A DNA stretch of 64,000 bases from Callorhinchus milii (lineage: Eukaryota): positions 75,394,001-75,458,000 of the forward strand of contig NW_024704742.1 in NCBI RefSeq assembly GCF_018977255.1. Direction: 5' to 3'. Positions within the stretch are counted from its first letter, which is position 1. The number at the start of each line of letters is the position of its first letter. Positions 3,283 to 48,000 of this stretch are shown here, piece by piece. The notes beneath the pieces were generated by a model. The model worked only from the letters and a program-made list of their open reading frames with translations, ran no database searches and was not told where the DNA came from. The position numbers and the translations under genes were made by a program.

Positions 3283-3959
3283 TTGTAATCTTGGGACGGC
3301 ACACTAGGCAATAGATAGTCTGTAGTGAAGAGAAATACATGTAGAATAGAGAAATCCATTGTTGTCATTAATATTAAATAGTTCAAGTAGTAATATTTCT
3401 GGAGAGATTAGTAGATTTTCATCAAAAAGTATGGATGTGTTGGGTCCAATAGCCTTTTCCTTTTAAAACAAATATAAATACTTTCTCTTCAAGTGTATTG
3501 GTGCAATGCTGGTATGAAGGATTGTAAAATATGTCATTAAGGACAAGGAAAATATTTTATGATCAAAATACCAGTCCTCTTTCCAGTAGAAAAATCAAAA
3601 GTACTTTTTACCTCCAGTGAAGCTTGCTTTCCTATATTACTTAGGATCTGCCTTTGCCATTTCTTGGGTCAGCAGTTATGTTAATGATTCTTTGGATGAA
3701 CCATTCCTTGGATGAGCACGGTTACATCCCAGAATGGTGCCACAGTTTAACAGACAGAACTATCCCTGGCCAATTAGAAGCCTGCCAAAAATGAAAATTG
3801 CAGTAACTAGTGCATTGTGAGATGAACAAAGAAATGTATCCTAACTGGTAATATCAAGATCGAGGAGTAAAAGAGAAAGGTCTTTTAAAGATGGCAGTAG
3901 ACAATTATACAAATGTTTCTGTAGAGGCATTAAATATACAAGTTATTGTTAAATATGTG

Positions 3960-4480
3960 CAGGCATGGTTAGGCTGCAGTTGGAGCATTGCACCCAGTTG
4001 TAGGCACCTAATTACAGAAAAGGCATCGCAACCATAGAGAGGGAACAGGTCAAGATTCATTAGGATTACACTGGGTTGAAAGACCATAGTTATATGGAGA
4101 GATTTGAAAAATCAAATTGGACCAGTTTTCACTGGAACAAAGAAAGTTAAGGGGCATTTAATTTGAGATTTTCAAAATTATGAATGGTTTTATAAGGTTT
4201 ATAAAAATTCCACTTGACTGCAAGCCTGTAATAAAACATCAAGGTGAGAATTATCACCATCAGAAAATAAATAAATAACAAATAATCCTTGCATTTGATA
4301 ATTGATATAATTATCATCATCAGAAAAAGGGGAGGTAAGAAGATATTTTAAGTAGAGGGCTGTTGGAATGTGGAATATTTAAAGTAAATGGCTGCTGAAG
4401 TTGGGTCTATAACATTTAATTTAAGGAAAATATTAAAGATTATGGGGAATTAACGGGGAAATTCGATTAAAATAGATAGC
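3960..4480 (+). mobile_element. degenerate CR1 3' fragment
   Basis: Decayed LV.LQLEHC.Q, E.VQ.RFIR, FSLEQRKLRGHLI motifs. Confidence 0.55.
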
Positions 4481-4631
4481 AACAGTTATATTATAGAATA
4501 GTGAAATTTAAACCAGTTACCTCCTTTATGCTGTAAATGTACAAATTGTTTTCATACAACACACATGACTTACAGAATTTACAATCTAAATTTTAGAAAT
4601 GTTATATATGAATTATAAACTAAGATTTCCA

Positions 4632-4983
4632 TTTATTTCAGAAACATAATGAAACATGTCATCGTGTGATCAGCAGTAATCCATGGATGAATTTGGGATA
4701 ATTATACACCATGATATTGCAAGGTTTATTGCTTCTGTTCTGCAGTTACAAAATTGCATTACTCTCAATAGTAAACGGATGGAGGCAACAAAATACTTAG
4801 ATGCATTTGAACTTGTGATTTGACAAGCTTTTATTTACAATATGTTGTAACTGTACATGTTGCAGCATAGGAAGCATCAGTTAAAAGATATTTAGTGGAA
4901 AGGTACCATGTAACCTCCTGTTCACTTTGTAAACATTTCCTGAACACAGATAAACCAAATTCAGTTAGTTTATTGTATATACA
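4632..4983 (-). terminator. cluster of candidate poly(A) signals with Pumilio elements; probable distal end of the HOOK3 3' UTR
   Basis: Minus-strand AATAAA at 4969-4974, 4830-4835, 4725-4730 and 4632-4637; TGTATATA at 4976-4983 and TGTAAATA at 4832-4839. TE-dense sequence resumes below about 4480. Confidence 0.5.
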
Positions 4984-6144
4984 TATTTTATATAAGCAGC
5001 ATGTAAATTGCCAGTTACATTATAGAATCAAAGCAGAGAAAAGGGTGACAAATGCAAGTAATGAATCCTCTAAATGTAACACAATGATCTGCATCTAAAT
5101 ACAAAAGATAAATAAATACATACATTAATACAATGTTAATGTGCAACAGGCTAGAGGTTTGCACCAGGTGGCTTCTCCTCCCATTTACAGAACCGGATAA
5201 CCTAACCTTCAAAAGGTAGTCAAAGCAGGCCATTAATACTTTATCAAGACTAAAGTAAACAGGAATATGCTACAATTATAGCAAATAAGGGGAAAGAAAA
5301 AGAACCATGTAAGAGCGAGTGAAAGCAAAGCCATAGTTAGAAAACAAATGCTAAAAATGATCACAATGCAAGAAACATTTGTAGCATAGAAATTAGAATT
5401 ATTGGCATTTAGGTACAAGACCTGAGATTGCTGCTATAAGTAAGAAAGCATCGTCAGTTCACAGATCTAAATGAATTGTTAAGATATTTATGGAAATATG
5501 AAGACATACAAAATCTGTAACAGATGGACAGCTGCGAGTGGCACAAGATGGCATCTTCTTAATACATTTAAAGCTTTCAATTACCCTTTGTGCTTATCAA
5601 GGTGGGGTATATCAGTTTGGTCAAAGTCTTACATTTGACACTAAGTCTTTCTATCAAGGACCTCCTGATAAGGTACAGTATGTCAGTGGGAAGTGAAAGG
5701 TCCTTCTAATCTGCACCAACAAAGTGCCCAACCTTAAAAGAGCACCTACTACTGGACCATTTTTGCTCTGATCAAATTGCCAATTTGGTGCCAAATAGTG
5801 GGCAGTTCTGTGCTTTAGACTCAGCCTACTGGTTTGAGCATGTTAAATTCCTTTAGTTTGGATCTGAACAGCCAGCAGAGAAAGAACACTTAATTGTATC
5901 AGTCTGTTTTGGGGTGCGAATAGAGGTCCAAGGAGAAAGGGCAGTATGCTAAACAAATTGTGCCACCCAATCTCTGACTAGTCCAAAGCTACTGAGTAAA
6001 TGGATCATTTAAAACCAACAGATCGGTTGTATTTGCATGTTAGATAACTGAAACGGCAGTGGGTATGGTTAGTTCCCTGGATTATGCGTCTGAACTCAAA
6101 AGTCATGCAAACGAACAATCATTGCCGGTAAGCCATGCTGGGGG

Positions 6145-6160
6145 TCATGCAATCACGTCA
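6145..6160 (-). CDS. HOOK3: HOOK3 alternative distal terminal exon, coding part: (S)DVIA*
   Basis: Acceptor ttctttctcttaatatgttttgttcttcatttgcag|T GAC GTG ATT GCA TGA; phase-compatible with the donor GCA AG|gtagaa at 10187/10186. Confidence 0.75.
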
Positions 6161-9100
6161 CTGCAAATGAAGAACAAAACATATTAAGAGAAAGAATACT
6201 GGCTAATGTATTAACACTTGAACTTCTGTAACATATACATTAAATGTGTTAATAGTTAGTGTAACCAAGTTAAGCAAGTATTGTATCAGGCTTACTTAGT
6301 TACTATGATAATGGTCATGTTATTGGTTACAACACAAAAGGGAAAAATTAAAATGCATATGCATTTTTAAATATAATCTCATATTCTTTGGCCTTAAAAT
6401 TGTGCCTAAATAATAACTAATACTGGTTCAAACACGATTAGAAAAATGAATAAGAGAGGATAAGCAAACAATCTTTTTCAGATGCAATGATCGACATTTA
6501 ATTATTTGCTATAACTGAATTATTAATAATGAAAATCAGAGTAATGATACTGAGCTACAGTCCAGTTCTATGACAACAGCAGCTTCTATTAGCTTTATAA
6601 AGTGCAAATGAAAATCAGGATGGCTTTGCTTGAATGACTAACCATTTGAAGATAATTAAGGGCACCACATAATGCCATTTAAAACTAATCAGTTTTTTCT
6701 TAACACAAATGTTAATGGTCAATTGTCACATTCATAGTTTCTGCTAGCATAGCTATTATGCAGCAAGTGCTGGAAGCTCATAGATAAGATTGTAGAAAGA
6801 ATAACATTGGAAATTACAATTTGTTGAGTATATTGTAAATTAAAAATAACCAATTTAACATAAGACTTGAATAAACTATCTTCAGATGGTTCCCTAGACA
6901 AAAAAAAGCAGTTTTTTTAAAATAAATTTGTCTTCATCATGTGTTCCACATCTTACCCGACAGCTTAAAAACAAAAGAAAATCTACTTTCCGTTACTCTT
7001 GGAGTTTAATATTACTCTAAAGAATACTTTTTTTAGTCTGAGGATGGAAATCCAAAGATATTGACGCAAAATATATTTAATCTAAATCAACATAAAAACT
7101 AATTTTGTCACGTTAACAAACTACTCTGCAATCAGCAGGTATACAGTTTAAGTAGAATTATCCTTTTGAGATCTTATAACCAAGGCCTCTGAGGCTCATA
7201 CTGCTCAATTCATTTTTGTAAACTGCCGGCAATGTAATAAAGGTATTTTAAATGATTTTCGTTATATTATGTTCCCAATTTATTATAATTTATTTCAGAT
7301 GGTTTTGATAGAAGCACAATAGATGTACACTTCTAATTCGTAAATTATCCAATATCCATTTCCTATTGCCTTGTTTTACAAAGTCCTGAGACAATAAAGC
7401 CCACATAAGAAAATGAGGTATTTTCTAATTTACATTCTCATACAGGTCAGGTAATAACTTGTGAATTTAAGTTCCTTTAATCATCAAGTCTGTGATAATA
7501 TTTTTTTAGCAATTTTTTTTTCTAAATATAGAAATTTTCCATTTGCTTTAAATTTCCATGATTTAAGGTCATATGCAGCAGACTTACTCCAAACAAGTAT
7601 TACTATAAATTACTGAAATTTACAAATCATCAGTTTTAAGATCAATTTATCATTAAACATTTACTCAAGATAGAAGATTCTCAATTGTCTGCATAGTTTC
7701 TGCTACAAGAATCTCATTTATTGAAGCCACTGAAATCAGAAGTCAGACAGTGTTTTTGCTAGAGCGAGTAGGTTTTTCAATTTTTTTTTGCCATATTTCT
7801 ATATTCTAGAACGTATAGGAATTGGGGAAAGTAAAAGTATTTATTCTAATGTGTAATAAACGTTTCTAAAAGATTAGCAGGTCAATTTGAATCACTTCCA
7901 GTAAATTGCACTACTGTATTTGTAAAACTGATTACAATTTTCCCTGAAAACACACACTGAACTTATCACCATTCAAAAACTCATTTAGGCCCTTGAGTAC
8001 TGAAATATTCTTAAAAATAAGTTTTATACATCGTCAGAAGAATGTTCTTTACATTTCTCACAACGGAAAAGTTATATAAGACAAATTCAAGAAATAGATA
8101 GAACCATAAGAAAAAGCTTCATATGGCTTTTGAAATTAACTGAATTTTTCTGTTTGCAACTGTGTTGGTGCAAAATTGCTGCCACTGTCAAAAGGTCTAC
8201 AATGACAAAAAGTACATTTATCACTACTAATATTAATCTTTGCATTTGATATAGCGGCTTTTGTGTCACGAGGGCGTCTCAAAGTACTTCATGGCATAGG
8301 CTGTAAAGTGGAGTAACCATATTCTATAATAAGGTTATTACTACGTAGCCAATTTGCAAATTTAAGATCAGATGCATTTTAGGTCAAATGCTATGTAGTA
8401 CAAGATGGCTTTGAAACACAAATTACCATTAAAAAAGTTCTTCACTGACTTAGTTATTCCAATTTAATTTCCTCCTCAAACTTTTTAAAAACAAGAAGTC
8501 TAAAAACTGTTGATAATACAAGAGAAATTAAAGACACTGGAAGTTTAATTTTTCAATATATAATTCAACTTATCATCAGGGGACCTCCCAAGTGTTAAGG
8601 TCTGAAGTGAGCAACACAAGTTACTCCAAAACTATCCCATAACATTTATACCACAAATGTGCTATAAATTATTAGTATATTTTATTGGACAAAGTTGAAA
8701 ATGATTTCTCAACATGCAATCACTTTTAACAGAATTGTTTAATTGAGGAATCTGAGAAGTAAGTCAGGCAAATTGGTGAGAACTCAAGTCTGAGGTGATC
8801 TTTGTAGTAAAGTTCCTGCAAGTCAGCATGATCTATTTTCTCTAACCGTTCCTCAATTGGATTCCTTAATTAAGGGTCCTGTTTGTAGCATTGAGATCTA
8901 AAACACAGAGTCCTAATCATAATTTGCTTTTGTTGTGAGGAGTCTGCAGCCACAGCTGCTACAGGCACAAAAGTGACAAGAAAAAGACTCCCAGATCAAT
9001 ATACATTCTCACCATTTATCCTATAGTTTCAGCCAATTGTTCTCTCATAGAACAGCCACTGGTTGCTGGAAAATGTGTAGTGAAGCTGATTGAAATCTTG

Positions 9101-10182
9101 CAGTGTTTGAATGTTAGTCAACAGAATAAAGACTTTTAATATTGCCACAACGTTAGTTTGGGTGGTATAGTGGAACATAGTGGATCACTTGCTAAGAAAG
9201 ACAAAGTTGATAACAAGGGGTAAATACAGCTCCCTCCCCAAGCCCATTTCAGCTCTGTGAGACAGTACAAAATAAATTGAAAAGGAAATCACATGTTCAA
9301 CTAATGAGCACCAGTAACTGCTTCTACTTTGCAAATGTTCTTAACTGAAGGCAAATTAGTCAATTAGATTGCACATGTATTTGGCGAATATTTGTGTTCA
9401 TTAATGCAAAGGATGTCAAATGGTGAGGAGTGGAATACCTTTCTACTTTTGGCACTCAGTGACAACACCAATAACACCCAGATATACTTAAAAAGAGAAC
9501 TGGAGAAATACTTGAGGAAAAATAAGTGTTAATAGGGAAAGTGCAGGCATATGCGGTTAAAGCAGTTAGCTCTGTGGAGGAGCCAGCACCAGCAAAGTCA
9601 CGATGAGCCAAATGGCTGTAAACATTTGTGATTCTATAATAAACCTCCAGCTATTCAGCCCAGTCAATGTCCTCAAACTTTTCCATTTCCCACTCCAGCT
9701 TTCTTTATGATCTTCCTGAGTGAGATTGCCAGTGTAGTGCCAAATTCTAGACTGGCCTGAGCACAAAGAATTGGCTGAGTCAGCTCAAAATTTAAGAGAA
9801 ATCTAATGTTAAAAGCATATCCATATTTTCCAAATACTGTGCATCAGAGGAAGAATTTTTAATTATCAGCAACAATTAAAAGGATTAAATTCAGGTCTGT
9901 GGCAATTTTAGGGCTGAAAACTGAATAAAAAAGTAGCCCTCTCCTTGAATTATGGAAAAGATGGAAAGTGGAACAGTTATTTCCACAGTTGTTGATATAC
10001 TGCACTTGTGGCATCAAACTTCATACGTGGCCTTAGCAATACATTCAATACGAACATTAGCACAAAGGTTTTTTTTAAAAAATGAATTTCAAAAAAAGGA
10101 ACTTGATATTTTCCAAGTGGTTGAAGATGGGCAATTACACTATATACTACACAATGTGTGCTCTGGCCGTGGACTGTTTCTT

Positions 10183-10323
10183 CTACCTTGCTGTAGCTGG
10201 TTGGACATGCCCAGGGTATGGTCGCCGTGTGCTTGTTGCTTGTCTCTGTCTCGCTAGGAAAGATTGTCCTGAACCAGTACTAGCAAGTCTGTCTTCTGCT
10301 GCTTTCTTATGAAGAGCCATTCC
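10183..10323 (-). CDS. HOOK3: HOOK3 exon 22, coding part: GMALHKKAAEDRLASTGSGQSFLARQRQATSTRRPYPGHVQPATAR*
   Basis: tctag|GGA...GCA AGG TAG; conserved SFLARQRQAT motif. Confidence 0.97.
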   Translation of the reverse strand, partial: GMALHKKAAEDRLASTGSGQSFLARQRQATSTRRPYPGHVQPATAR

Positions 10324-10554
10324 CTAGAGTAAATTCAGAATTTGAATTTAGTACACTTAAGAAACACTTATGCTTGTTTTAGTGTTAGTACTATATAAAA
10401 AGTAACTGTTTAGCAATTCCAATGAAAATGCAAGTGAATATGAAATCTGTAAGCTGCAAGGAAATGTGAAGCTATGGAAAAAGAGCTAGAAGGCAAACTA
10501 TGGCTTAATTTTGCTAAAAGCTTGCAATGTTATTTGTAGTAATAATATTAATTA

Positions 10555-10863
10555 TAATAATAATCCTTGCATTTGATATAGCGCTTTTCACGTCTTCTAG
10601 ACATCCCAAAGCGCTTCACAGAATATACTTTAAAGTGAATTGACTGTATATTTGTGGGCGAACGCGGCAGCCAATTGCGCACAGCCATGTCCCACAGTCG
10701 TAGATTGTAAATGACCAATTTATCATTATTTTTTGTTTTGGAGGGATTATTATTAGGCGTGTGGAGTAAGGAAACTTGCCCAAGGTTTCGTCCTGTGCCT
10801 GGAATTGAACTCAGGTCTCTCACTTGCAAAGCGAATGCTCTAACCACTGAGCTACAGGACTCC
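10555..10863 (-). mobile_element. tRNA-derived SINE, short form, full length
   Basis: Reverse complement of the 1790 element. Confidence 0.9.
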
Positions 10864-11539
10864 ACAGCCAGTCAGGGTCGGATAATGTAGACTACAGTTT
10901 AGAAGGAAACTAAATGGTTCAGATAAACTTCATTCATCCATTCTGTGTTCTTAAAATCAGTTATACATTTTTACTCAATAGGAAAACCCAGCCAACCAAT
11001 TGATATAAATTTCACTTAAGTATCAAATTTGGAATGTTTAGTTGAAACTGTAAAATAGGATTGCTGCTGTAATTCACCTTCTGACTATTGGCAAACCAGG
11101 GAACTAAAGCAGACTGTTTTATTTAAAAAGAAATGCTTTCAGGTCATGCAATGTGATGCCAAATCAAAATTACAGTACATCAGACGTACCTATATTACTA
11201 AAAAGAATTTAAATGAAAGAGTTTGCATCACTTGCTTCTCCCCCCATTCTTTTTCTCTGTGGGCTTATTCAAGTAAGTTACTGCTTTCATTTTTGCATTT
11301 CCACACCATTTATCTTTGCTCCCAGGCCCTTCTCCACTGCCACAAAATGGCTTAAGATACTATTCCGGTGCGATTCCAGCTAAACATTGGGAGGGCTCAA
11401 AGCTTCACAGAATTGATTGTAATGTGTAACCGTATTTTGTAAGCAAATGAGGCAATTAGTTTATGTACAGCATTTCCCCACATACAGCCAAGAAGTGAAT
11501 GACCAATTTTATTACAGAAGCTGTAAATTGTATTCTTAC

Positions 11540-11611
11540 CATGTTGTACCAGGCACTGACAATCAGTTTCTCCTCATGATCCCTTTGATTCTTTGTCTTC
11601 TCATACTCATT
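11540..11611 (-). CDS. HOOK3: HOOK3 exon 21 (72 nt): NEYEKTKNQRDHEEKLIVSAWYNM
   Basis: tttag|AAT...ATG|gtaaga; Hook-family motif EEKLIVSAWYN. Confidence 0.96.
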
Positions 11612-12329: not shown

Positions 12330-13900
12330 AGAAGTGCACTAAAATTCTACAAAATTCTACAGAAAGAGGCAAATAGGGACTCTGCAGCTCAACTTGGCTC
12401 CAAGTTGATATGCTTGGCAACGCAATGTTGGACACATGTCTTGCAGCTGTCTTGGAGGTCTGGTTACTGAGCCCGGCTGGTCTTCAGTATTGCTGAGTCA
12501 GCCTGGCTCATTGGAATGATTTGGAAAAGCAGACCAGTCACTGGAGCAGGGATTCTTACCTGTTAATGTAAAGGGCGGCATGAAGGGTGCTATATAAATG
12601 TAAGTTGTTGTTAACCTGGAAGTCAAAGGCCTAATAAATAGGATAGTCCTAGCTGGACTAGCAGTAGGAAGTTTGTCAGACATTGCTATCAATGACAAGC
12701 TATGTGGTTTTATGGTTAGACTCCAGCACTACTCCATTGCTTACTCTGGAGTGCCCAAGTCTCGACTCTTGCCAACATGCATCTAATACTTTCTGGAATT
12801 AAATAAGCAGTATCTATCTCTCTGGGAGAGTCCGTATTCCATTCCAGAAAGGGGAATTTCCACGTGTGGGTAGCATGCCACAGAACCTTTAGTCTGGTTT
12901 CGATTCTCTTAAATGCTCAGCGTGAAATGTATGAGAGCATTGCCACCATCTTCCAGTCCACAGCTTGGGCACACATTCCTACACAATGACCCATGTCTCC
13001 CATCAGTTGGAGGAATGGAGCTTGAGCTACTTGCCTCTCTGCAAACCAAGCAAGGTCCAGTCTATGTCCTGGATATACAAAAGTGTGTTCTTAAACATGG
13101 AATCCCTTCCAGCAGCTGTCATCCCAAGCCTCAGTGTTTTCTCATTAGCTATCTAATGAATAGATAGATAGCTAATGAGAAAACACTAAGGCTTGGGTTT
13201 CATCTGCTTCCGCATGGTGGGAGGACCTTTACTGGACAGCTTGTGACGTACCAGCCACCTTGATGTCCTCGAGGTCCAGGTCCAATATTGTGTACTAGGT
13301 TTACTCAGCACTGGCTGCTTAATCAAGCCCAAATGGGATTTGGCAAATAGACATGCCTGCTGTGAAGCTGTTTCCACATCTGTGGGGCTTAGCAACAGAT
13401 CTGTCTAAGCTGGAGGCCTCTCTCCCTGCAGCCAGCTCACTGCTTGGTCTTGGACTTCCCGTGGGCTGGAGGAAGCTCTCTATTGAATTGCACTCAACCA
13501 TAAAGGAGAATTGTTTGGACACTAGACTTTTATGCCACGAGCCTGACCTGCATTCGGACCTTGAAGAGAGATGAGAGCAACCACAATACCATTCAGCACT
13601 TCTCCCTGTGGTCCTAACAACCCCCAGAAACTGATAAGAATCAACTGGGACCGATGCCCATAGTATCTTCCAATCAATAGCCTCAATGCCTTCTCTTGAG
13701 CCGTGCAGAACCATGATTTCAGTTACGGACACCTGCTATCATAGTCTAATATTCAAACAATGAGTGCAGGGCACAAGAAACCCAGGTGAGTTCGACAGCA
13801 GCACAATATCGTCTACAAACAGAAGCACCACAATCCTGTCAGGAATGCCTAGAACAAATATAGCAAGTCCAGCCATCTCAATGCCAAGAATCTTACCCAT
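12330..13900 (-). mobile_element. heavily decayed non-LTR retroelement, R2/RLE-like
   Basis: Collinear remnants LFVDDIVLLSNS (FVDD at 13808-13819), YQFLGV (~13620-13636), QGGWYVT (~13240-13262) and GMLPTR (~12862-12879); outer limits uncertain. Confidence 0.5.
13123..13197. repeat. near-perfect hairpin: 33-bp arms (1 mismatch), 9-nt loop
   Basis: cccaagcctcagtgttttctcattagctatcta / tagatagctaatgagaaaacactaaggcttggg. Confidence 0.95.
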
Positions 13901-14092: not shown

Positions 14093-14197
14093 CATTAAAG
14101 AGTGAAACATTCGCTCCTTCTCCTGCAGTTGGTTTTTCAGGGCCTGAACCTCAGGGGCTGCTCCCTGGTTCTGTTTGGGATCCAAGGTTCTGATAAC
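14093..14197 (-). CDS. HOOK3: HOOK3 exon 20 (105 nt): VIRTLDPKQNQGAAPEVQALKNQLQEKERMFHSLM
   Basis: tttag|GTT...ATG|gtaatg. Confidence 0.96.
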
Positions 14198-45000: not shown

Positions 45001-48000
45001 GATAGATCAATGCTAAAAAATTCATACAAAGCAATATTAGATGTGTATATAATTGCTGAAAATGGGCAGAACTATTTAACCATTTAATTATTGCACCAGA
45101 CAGCTCTGATTTCAAGTTATACATAGATTGTTATGTACAAATGAAGTACAACAACATCATGGCTCTCTTCCCACCCCCCCCCCCCTTTTAATTATAGTCA
45201 ATTCACTTCCTTTCAAAGCATTATGAATAATTAGAACAGCCACTCCCATGTAATTTTTTTGATAACAATAAGGGAAAAATAGACAACCAAAGCTGAGATT
45301 GGTTAGATAACCCAGATGGTGGATGTTAATACATTATTTGAGCCTGATGATATGACTGTTAAAAAGATAAATAATAGATTTACCCATTCTTCTAGTTCAA
45401 TACACTCTAATCTCTGTCTAGCTGTCACATCTTGAAAAAGGTGTGCCTTCAAAACAAGGCAAAGTGAAAGAGATGTTAAAATTTCATCACAAACAGCAGG
45501 ATTCAGAAAAGAAAAAAAGCAATGGTGTCAGGTCAGTGATAGAATGTAGAAGATACAGAGATAAATTTTGCAAATACAAAGCTTTCTAGGTGTACACTAT
45601 TGTTCTGACACCTAGGGAAAATATGGTTTGTGAACAGACTTTCAGTATGATCTACTTAACAAAATGAAAACAGTAATATACATCAGTTAACAATGTTGCA
45701 TTGATTGGATAATAACTGGTTGAGATCACCCCAAATTCTGGAATTTTCCTTGCCTATAGCTATCTCCTTGCTGGGGAATGATTTTTTTTTAAACCAACTA
45801 AGGATGAGAGAAGAGAGGAAAAACTCAGGATCTAACCCTTATCATGATTTCTTTCAATAACAAAGGCACTATATTACCACAGGTGATTTTCTTCTACCCA
45901 GAGGCAGCATTGGTGAATGTTGATTTGAATTCTATTCCCTCAGACAGAGCTCATCATATTGTTTCAGTTTTTGTGACAAGGCTAGGCTCATACACTATGC
46001 ATACAGGGCACAGCGTAAAATGTCTAAGGCTAGAAAATACCATTAAGCAACAATATTTTCTTTTTTCTACAAATGGGCGAATCCACAAACTGCACATTCA
46101 GGCATTGCAGCCATTTTGATCTGAAATGTCTCTTCAATACATTGCAATACAAAGATGATAAAATAATTTGTATTCATGTATTACCTCTGGTTAAACTCCT
46201 AGTTTCCAATAAAGTTGATGCCACCATTTTGTTTGTGACGCAAATTAGCTTGTGAGTCCCAAAATAAAGCAGCCTCCTCTCGCATGGCATATTTACACAT
46301 CATCTCATTTGGAGCCTTAACTTTGTTTTGTTTTTTAACCCAGAGATGGCCAAAGGGCAACTCCAGAACTGCTGAAACTGATGAATAATAAATTGATGGG
46401 ACTGCAAAGGGGCTTTGTATGTGAATGTTGAACTTCAGTTAAGATTGAGGAAGACCACACCTAAAAGATAGGTAATCTGGCATTCTTTCATCCTCTATCT
46501 TTTAAATAGGACCTATCCTTATAAACAAACCAAAGAACCTGGCATCCTGAACTGTTACAAAGCCAGGAAACATTTAGAAAATCATGCTCACCACTCCGAT
46601 TGGCTGCCTTGAAGATGGCTTGGAGAGGAAACCTTCTGCACTGAAATTCCCTGAAAACCATGAGCTCAAACAACCTTAGTCAAGGGGAGGAAGTCCATCA
46701 CCATCACTTGTAGTTCACAAACTGTTCATATTGAAATAAGTTAAAAACTACTTTGTTGTAAAATGATTGAAATTTATAGAAATTTACAGGTTAAAAATGT
46801 TGCGACACGATCTTGCCTACAACCAATGTGCACTCTTCAAACACTGCTCCACATGGAAATGCTGAAACCTCTTCATCTAAAAGCATCTGGATGTAGAGAA
46901 AGATATCTCACACCCCATTGCACTAAAGTGGCAATTAAGTCCAAAAATAAAACTGGATAATTTGGTGTTCAATAGCTTCACAGTGTAGGCTTTCCTGGAA
47001 ACCAGAAGATTAAATCCCTGGGTGGTAGAATCCACAATCCTCTAAACAGGTCCGTTTACTTTCAGGAAAGGATTTATTGTATCCTTTCTAACCAACCATG
47101 GGTGCTCCAAGCAAGCGATTCTAATGGGACTGTCAATGCTGAGCATCTTGAGATCCACAGAAATTTATAACACAGAAGGCCATTCAGCTCATTATGCCTG
47201 TGGCTCTCAGTAAGCAGAAACCATTTAGGCCCATTCTTCTGCCTTTTCTCCAAAAGAATCACAATATAAGAATAAAGTCTTCCATGGGAAGAAAGGTAGT
47301 GGCCATCATTTCCTCTAAGGAATCATTTGAATAATCCATGACTGGATACTAGGAAAAGTACAAGAAAGAGTTTCATATAACTTGTTTCATGAGGAAATCA
47401 ACTGAATACAGAAACTCACATTTAGAAACGGAGCCTGAAGAAATTGCTTCTAAACAAATGCTTTAAACGTTCTAATGTTATGTAAGCAATGTGAACGTGG
47501 GAGTGGAACAAGTAAGAAAAAATAGATTAAGTGCTGGTAGGATTGCAGCTGATAGAATGACAACTTGCATTTATATAGTGCTGAGAGATGCTATGCTGTG
47601 TAAAGATCTCTATATAAATGTAAGATTTGACATTGGGAAAAGCTCTGACTTGCAACTGTCATTTACGAAGAAAAGTTTCACATGAGTTCAGAGATAAAAT
47701 GGTGATTTTTGAGGAAGTTTGAGAAAATGCTTTTGTTTTATCTGGAAGTTTTGAAGTAGAATTTTAAAAAAATGTCTTGCTCCTTCTCCATTTATCATGA
47801 TCCTCTATCCTGTCGTTCTTCCCAAACATAAATTGTCACGAACTCAATTATCTTATTTACTGAAACAGCCTTCCCTGGTAATTTATTCTATTTGATCATT
47901 GCCTTTTGAGTTAAATTAGTCTATCTGAAATTCATATTCAATCATTTTTAAATTTGATCTTCCTAGTTTTCAATCACAAACAATTTGGCCAGATTATTAT

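Follow-up and report, generated by a model that had tools for sequence, protein, structure and literature searches.

The HOOK3 gene of Callorhinchus milii ends in a splice switch, in which a 5' splice site that overlaps the stop codon is either left unused, yielding a protein that terminates in -PATAR, or joined to a downstream acceptor, yielding one that terminates in -PATASDVIA. This switch is real, ancient, already annotated and unstudied, and its mechanism is of a familiar type. The last coding exon (minus strand, from 10323) has GCT ACA GCA AGG TAG as its final codons, read as -PATAR-stop, and removal of 4026 nt together with the TAG leaves -PATASDVIA-stop, in which the Ser is forced by the AG|T at the junction. 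Near certainty attaches to what was observed: the two forms of the RNA, the splice junction, the poly(A) site of the retained form and the conservation of the tail.

The gene lies on the minus strand of the window, the whole stretch of 64,000 nt that was analysed, and C. milii HOOK3 models can be placed exon by exon on positions 10186-59944 by tblastn (Table 1). Its assignment as a HOOK3 orthologue is based on the Hook domain and coiled coils, on exons that are 93-100% identical to named C. milii HOOK3 records, with best matches for the last exon of 100%, on the presence of Pfam PF19047 and PF05622 on the HOOK3 matches, and on PDB matches that are Hook3. In the structural study of the human complex, the motif EEKxxxSAWYN, carried by the penultimate coding exon of HOOK3, is FTS-binding, and the helix FLARQRQAT (human HOOK3 694-702) binds FHIP1B (PMC11996680); counting back from the C-terminus places this helix in the part of the last coding exon that is common to both isoforms. 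The equivalent of human Ser707, given as an Aurora A site in PMC8215223, falls at about 10219-10221 (minus strand); cartilaginous fishes have Pro there (RRPYPG), and lizards and snakes Ala. Elsewhere in the gene, about 21 residues (AHLFQDVTARQRLECIELEEW; 45372-45458, minus strand) are encoded by a cassette exon that is present in RefSeq X1 and some shark models and missing from others. An exon at 14093-14197 is skipped or replaced in three UniRef C. milii models (P0002-P0004), and a further C. milii model (P0240) terminates in intron sequence near 13351; these four are probably model artefacts. The sole Rfam match is a tRNA-like head (RF00005, 10791-10858), which belongs to a short repeat recurring through the window, likely a tRNA-derived SINE, and the Rfam scan of the terminal intron gave no match.

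Table 1. Features of the HOOK3 3' end in the window
Feature	Position	Strand	Basis
Penultimate coding exon, NEYEK...AWYNM	11540..11611	-	tblastn, 100% to C. milii models
Last coding exon, part common to both isoforms (GMALHKK...QPATA + AG)	10187..10323	-	
5' splice site AAG|GTAGAA, overlapping Arg-stop (AGG TAG)	10181..10189	-	used in X5
Stop codon TAG of the retained (-PATAR) isoform	10183..10185	-	
Alternative terminal intron, GT-AG, 4026 nt, beginning inside the last codon; 3' UTR if retained	6161..10186	-	
Branch-point-like TTAAT (6187), pyrimidine tract and acceptor TTGCAG	6161..6190	-	branch point from motif only
Alternative terminal exon coding start, T GAC GTG ATT GCA TGA = Ser-Asp-Val-Ile-Ala-stop	6145..6160	-	TGA 6147-6145
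RBFOX-type cluster: TGCATG 6151-6146, GCATG 6138-6134, TGCATG 6109-6104	6104..6151	-	putative, motif-based
Poly(A) signal AATAAA (4835-4830) and cleavage site near 4813	4813..4835	-	X2 poly(A) run; X1 contig end at 4815

The RNA evidence consists of four runs (X1, X2, X5 and X6) out of 14, analysed as contigs over positions 3400-10500. All four are taken as RNA, since in each of them a contig runs from 10324 straight into the penultimate exon, without the constitutive intron (10324-11540). In X5, a contig of depth 22.3 joins 6160 to 10187; the 4026 nt left out have canonical ends, and the trunk contig stops exactly at 10187. The shorter side of this joint has 30 letters against a bridging rule of 31, and the adjoining contigs fork precisely at 10187. 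The X5 contigs thus bear out the original prediction, made from the letters of the sequence, that a splice from 10187 to 6160 removes the TAG, swaps -PATAR for -PATASDVIA and deletes 4026 nt of 3' UTR. The retained branch in the same run (8147-10216) has a depth of 10.1, so that the spliced branch is the deeper one, a ratio to be taken as rough because the junction comes from one of the four runs and is contig-based. The retained form is represented by a single unbroken X1 contig (4815-10324) that spans the whole intron and is joined to the upstream exon, indicating that -PATAR is made by full retention and not only by cleavage within the intron, and by X2, in which the intron is covered in two pieces and a poly(A) run is attached at 4813. 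The intron is therefore found unspliced in RNA that is otherwise spliced and polyadenylated. The X6 contig extends 116 nt beyond the acceptor and just 15 nt beyond the donor. As contigs speak for presence only, neither the uncovered intron in X5 and X6 nor the missing joint in X1, X2 and X6 was counted as absence. The differences between runs suggest regulation, although contigs are prone to lose rare forms, and regulation of the terminal splice by tissue is probable.

Retention of the terminal intron would thus pair the -PATAR ending with a 5.4-kb 3' UTR, and its removal together with the stop codon would pair -PATASDVIA with a 3' UTR of 1.3 kb. The precise lengths are 5370 nt and 1332 nt, if the spliced form shares the poly(A) site of the retained form, as is inferred; X5 contigs reach 5147. 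None of the five AATAAA hexamers within the intron was seen used in the four runs. In X2, contig depth doubles at 7412-7420, from 84.9 to 169 toward the 3' end, which may reflect 3' bias. A stop codon elicits EJC-dependent NMD when an exon junction follows it by more than about 50 nt. The new stop begins 13 nt past the last junction; EJC-type NMD should thus target neither of the two forms, and the predicted lack of a junction after the new stop agrees with the four runs, in which no further joint is present between 6160 and 4813.

The terminal donor is weak, matching five of nine consensus positions, where six other HOOK3 donors match five to six. Such a weak donor, constrained by the overlapping TAG, is predicted to make retention of the intron the default. 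The acceptor at 6161 (TTCTTCATTTGCAG|TGACGTGATTGCATGA, exon from 6160) had been described as strong; it is a good acceptor, yet it is non-unique, since among the 154 YAG sites between the donor and the poly(A) site three have a richer pyrimidine tract and five an equal one. With so many candidate sites, several of them with equal or better tracts, the sequence by itself is no proof of the splice. What places the splice beyond chance is that X5 contigs join 6160 to 10187 and that named protein records across jawed vertebrates have the same ending. The intron also contains, by plain count, 16 AUUUA and five ACUAAY motifs. In a metagenome scan, three loci were found among 182 candidate stretches, and the only true relative is one contig, L001, which shares GCAAG|GTAGA at the donor (reading GCAAG|GTAGAT) and stops 1.4 kb past it, with no acceptor within the contig.

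Both endings are already found in public gene models, as RefSeq has XP_007890129.1 (X1) with SDVIA and XP_007890130.1 (X2) with PATAR for C. milii, and HOOK3_XENLA of Xenopus laevis (Swiss-Prot Q6GQ73, cDNA AAH72875.1) ends in SDVIA. An ending of the form S-[DN]-[VLMI]-x-A-stop is present in cartilaginous and ray-finned fishes, amphibians, turtles, crocodilians and birds. The statement in the original prediction that other vertebrate HOOK3 models end in SDVIA proves correct from fishes to birds, whereas the ending was not seen in the mammal records. In the search with the spliced tail, 116 of 117 new records among the best 120 of 878 matches end in S-[DN]-x-x-A; these 116 belong to ray-finned fishes, amphibians, turtles, a crocodile and birds, and the sharks, rays and chimaera come from other searches. 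Of the 192 tails of five residues with an initial Ser in the records retrieved, 191 end in Ala. Counted as one record per taxon in 67 taxa chosen as carrying the tail, position -3 is D in 56 and N in 11; position -2 is V in 61, L in four, M in one and I in one, in a sample where similarity-ranked searches favour conservative tails and clade-level changes at this position are few (about four); and position -1 accommodates seven residues (I 33, V 12, T 10, K 6, M 4, S 1, F 1). The tail is carried by none of 50 mammal and none of 14 lepidosaur records, which were picked by name, many of them from a PATAR-seeded search, with large clusters only sampled (15 of 1195 members listed), and no mammal or lepidosaur is named among the best 120 of 878 spliced-tail matches. 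This distribution of sequence records suggests that the exon was lost in mammals and lepidosaurs and the donor kept.

The same donor is joined to other endings as well. The UniRef C. milii model A0A4W3J666 (P0242) uses a third acceptor at 873 for an ending of 31 residues (873-780, minus strand), and several shark genera have a further ending of 49-58 residues (S-ISAISIFYHEKRPF...; P0013, P0018, P0021, P0026, P0027 and P0268), for which no significant match was found in the window. An ISAISI stretch common to these two endings was rejected as not significant: even in the most favourable comparison, 335 of 2000 shuffles did as well. In mammal records and one other (P0383, P0399, P0283, P0341 and P0342), the donor leads to different endings, one of them a run-on that is probably the HOOK3-FNTA read-through. 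The S-F-[FV]-I... endings of seal and bonobo are possibly a remnant of the lost exon. That unrelated, lineage-specific endings are so numerous (11 of the 50 mammal records run past the donor into such endings, beside the long shark ending and acceptor 873 in C. milii) is what could be expected if the donor were cryptic and the switch splicing noise or an annotation artefact. Such noise would hardly keep one five-residue exon in 67 taxa from chimaera to birds, place it at the end of the Xenopus Swiss-Prot and cDNA record, or produce the deeper branch in X5, and this explanation, already largely refuted, is very improbable. The original prediction had named the lack of both junction reads and a conserved block as the result that would count against it; the joint exists in X5, and the tail is kept in the 67 taxa.

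How the choice between the endings is made may be indicated by three (U)GCAUG elements that lie within 57 nt of the start of the new exon, the first of them overlapping the Ile-Ala-stop codons. Clustered (U)GCAUG near a regulated splice site is the arrangement expected of an RBFOX target, and this is the sole instance of a pair or triple within 55 nt in the 55 kb of the gene. The chance of the pair and triple is 4.4e-4 and 1.5e-5 per 60 nt, respectively, under a first-order model, and they were found after 40 motif-by-region looks. RBFOX binding near the acceptor is predicted to tune removal of the intron, and on these motifs its involvement stands at about even chances. A form of regulation in which the terminal splice is obligately coupled to the neural Ala-Ile microexon was rejected, because proteins derived from assemblies or cDNA show each of the four combinations (P0201, P0202, P0203, P0251, P0284 and P0016); a 2x2 count of microexon against ending in gene models was set aside, as such models combine exons freely. 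Records that bear the microexon also carry the spliced tail, a poor fit to simple neuronal repression.

The added tail is predicted to be a class II PDZ-like ligand that would give the adaptor an extra partner. Class II PDZ ligands have the pattern hydrophobic-X-hydrophobic, and the syndecan ending EFYA (PMC6747541) provides a precedent that ends in Ala. The pattern is present at -2 and -1, with V, L, M or I at -2 in 67 of 67 taxa and any of seven residues at -1. The terminal Ala is small for the hydrophobic end of a PDZ ligand and is confounded with GCAUG: GCA-TGA itself spells this motif, so that a constraint on the RNA may be what keeps the Ala invariant, and the argument for a PDZ ligand is weakened to the extent that Ala-stop is fixed as RNA. 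The same observations allow that the event is mainly a 3' UTR switch, in which 4 kb of UTR are removed and splice signals, together with the RBFOX element, preserve five residues that arise as a harmless side product. A 3' UTR of 5370 versus 1332 nt, the forced Ser, the GCAUG in Ala-stop, the freedom at -1 and the AUUUA and ACUAAY motifs of the intron are consistent with this idea, and NMD would be escaped since a donor ahead of the stop leaves no junction downstream of a stop codon. D or N at -3 and exclusively hydrophobic residues at -2 in 67 taxa, however, fit no known RNA element, and in characins and catfishes Met or Lys at -1 destroys the U of UGCAUG, yet Ala-stop persists. A switch that mainly concerns the UTR is possible but rather less probable than the model in which a weak donor and RBFOX-type elements set the choice and the tail acts as a class II PDZ-like ligand, which may be given an even chance as a whole.

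For that model, a protein partner that reads the free C-terminus of -SDVIA is, judging from the residue pattern, a balanced proposition, and that the partner is a PDZ domain in particular is somewhat more doubtful. The cryo-EM model of human FTS-HOOK3-FHIP1B in PMC11996680 spans HOOK3 627-705 of 718, and in it one of two tails (helix 694-702) latches onto FHIP1B. As the model covers 627-705 only and a single tail sits on FHIP1B, the last HOOK3 residues may be free. Against a PDZ partner, the authors of that structure call the extreme C-terminus of HOOK3 buried and unable to bind cargo directly (PMC11996680). The boldest version, in which an RBFOX element is written into Ala-stop so that the same bases would encode a PDZ-type tag on a dynein/KIF1C adaptor and control its splicing, as old as the jawed vertebrates, with a cargo link that bypasses FHIP, and with mammals and lizards independently losing the tag and keeping the donor, is improbable. 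A swap of C-terminal degrons is improbable too: the Arg end (Cul2-FEM1 type) would be exchanged for an Ala end (non-Cullin type), altering HOOK3 turnover. Arg-ending and Ala/Val-ending C-degrons are both known, although FEM1 degrons require additional internal sequence (PMC7458402 for both), and the final residue is invariant in both endings, the Arg being also explained by the overlapping donor.

Splice events of a similar kind are known from other genes. In GluA2 (short and long) and GluN1, the C-terminus is likewise swapped when the last stretch of coding sequence is spliced with a different donor or acceptor, GluA2-long being without the type II PDZ motif (PMC8257547). In these receptors both forms are spliced and PDZ binding is established, whereas in HOOK3 the intron, which contains the stop codon, stays in one of the forms, and the PDZ ligand is only predicted. 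Closer in layout is GluN2A-short, a last-exon exitron in which, as in HOOK3, an intron within the otherwise last exon is removed and the C-terminus altered (PMC8257547); there the intron is part of the coding sequence and alters the reading frame, whereas the HOOK3 intron contains a single coding base, then the stop codon and 4 kb of UTR. In calcitonin/CGRP, controlled by Fox-1/Fox-2, a UGCAUG at +45, early in the alternative exon 4, blocks the acceptor (PMC2777236), and the HOOK3 elements stand at +10 and +52. Calcitonin/CGRP switches to another exon, whereas the outcome in HOOK3 is retention, UGCAUG is absent from the 300 nt upstream of the acceptor, and the role of RBFOX is putative. In the HOOK3 literature among the matches listed, no published description of the event, its regulation or its function was found, and the string PATASDV is absent; supplementary tables or splicing databases may list it. 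PMC10256740 and PMC4403257 mention Hook3 just in passing, and PMC4370497 states, with data not shown, that Hook exons are not spliced in human brain.

The functional HOOK3 papers cited here concern the human -PATAR form and assign cargo binding to FHIP, whereas the reference HOOK3 of Xenopus is the spliced form. If fishes, amphibians and birds make a tagged form with a short 3' UTR, studies of transport in these animals face two adaptors, and the apparent loss of the tail in mammals and lizards offers a natural comparison. Even if the tail is inert, the locus would still be a clean case of 3' UTR shortening by splicing that carries no risk of NMD.
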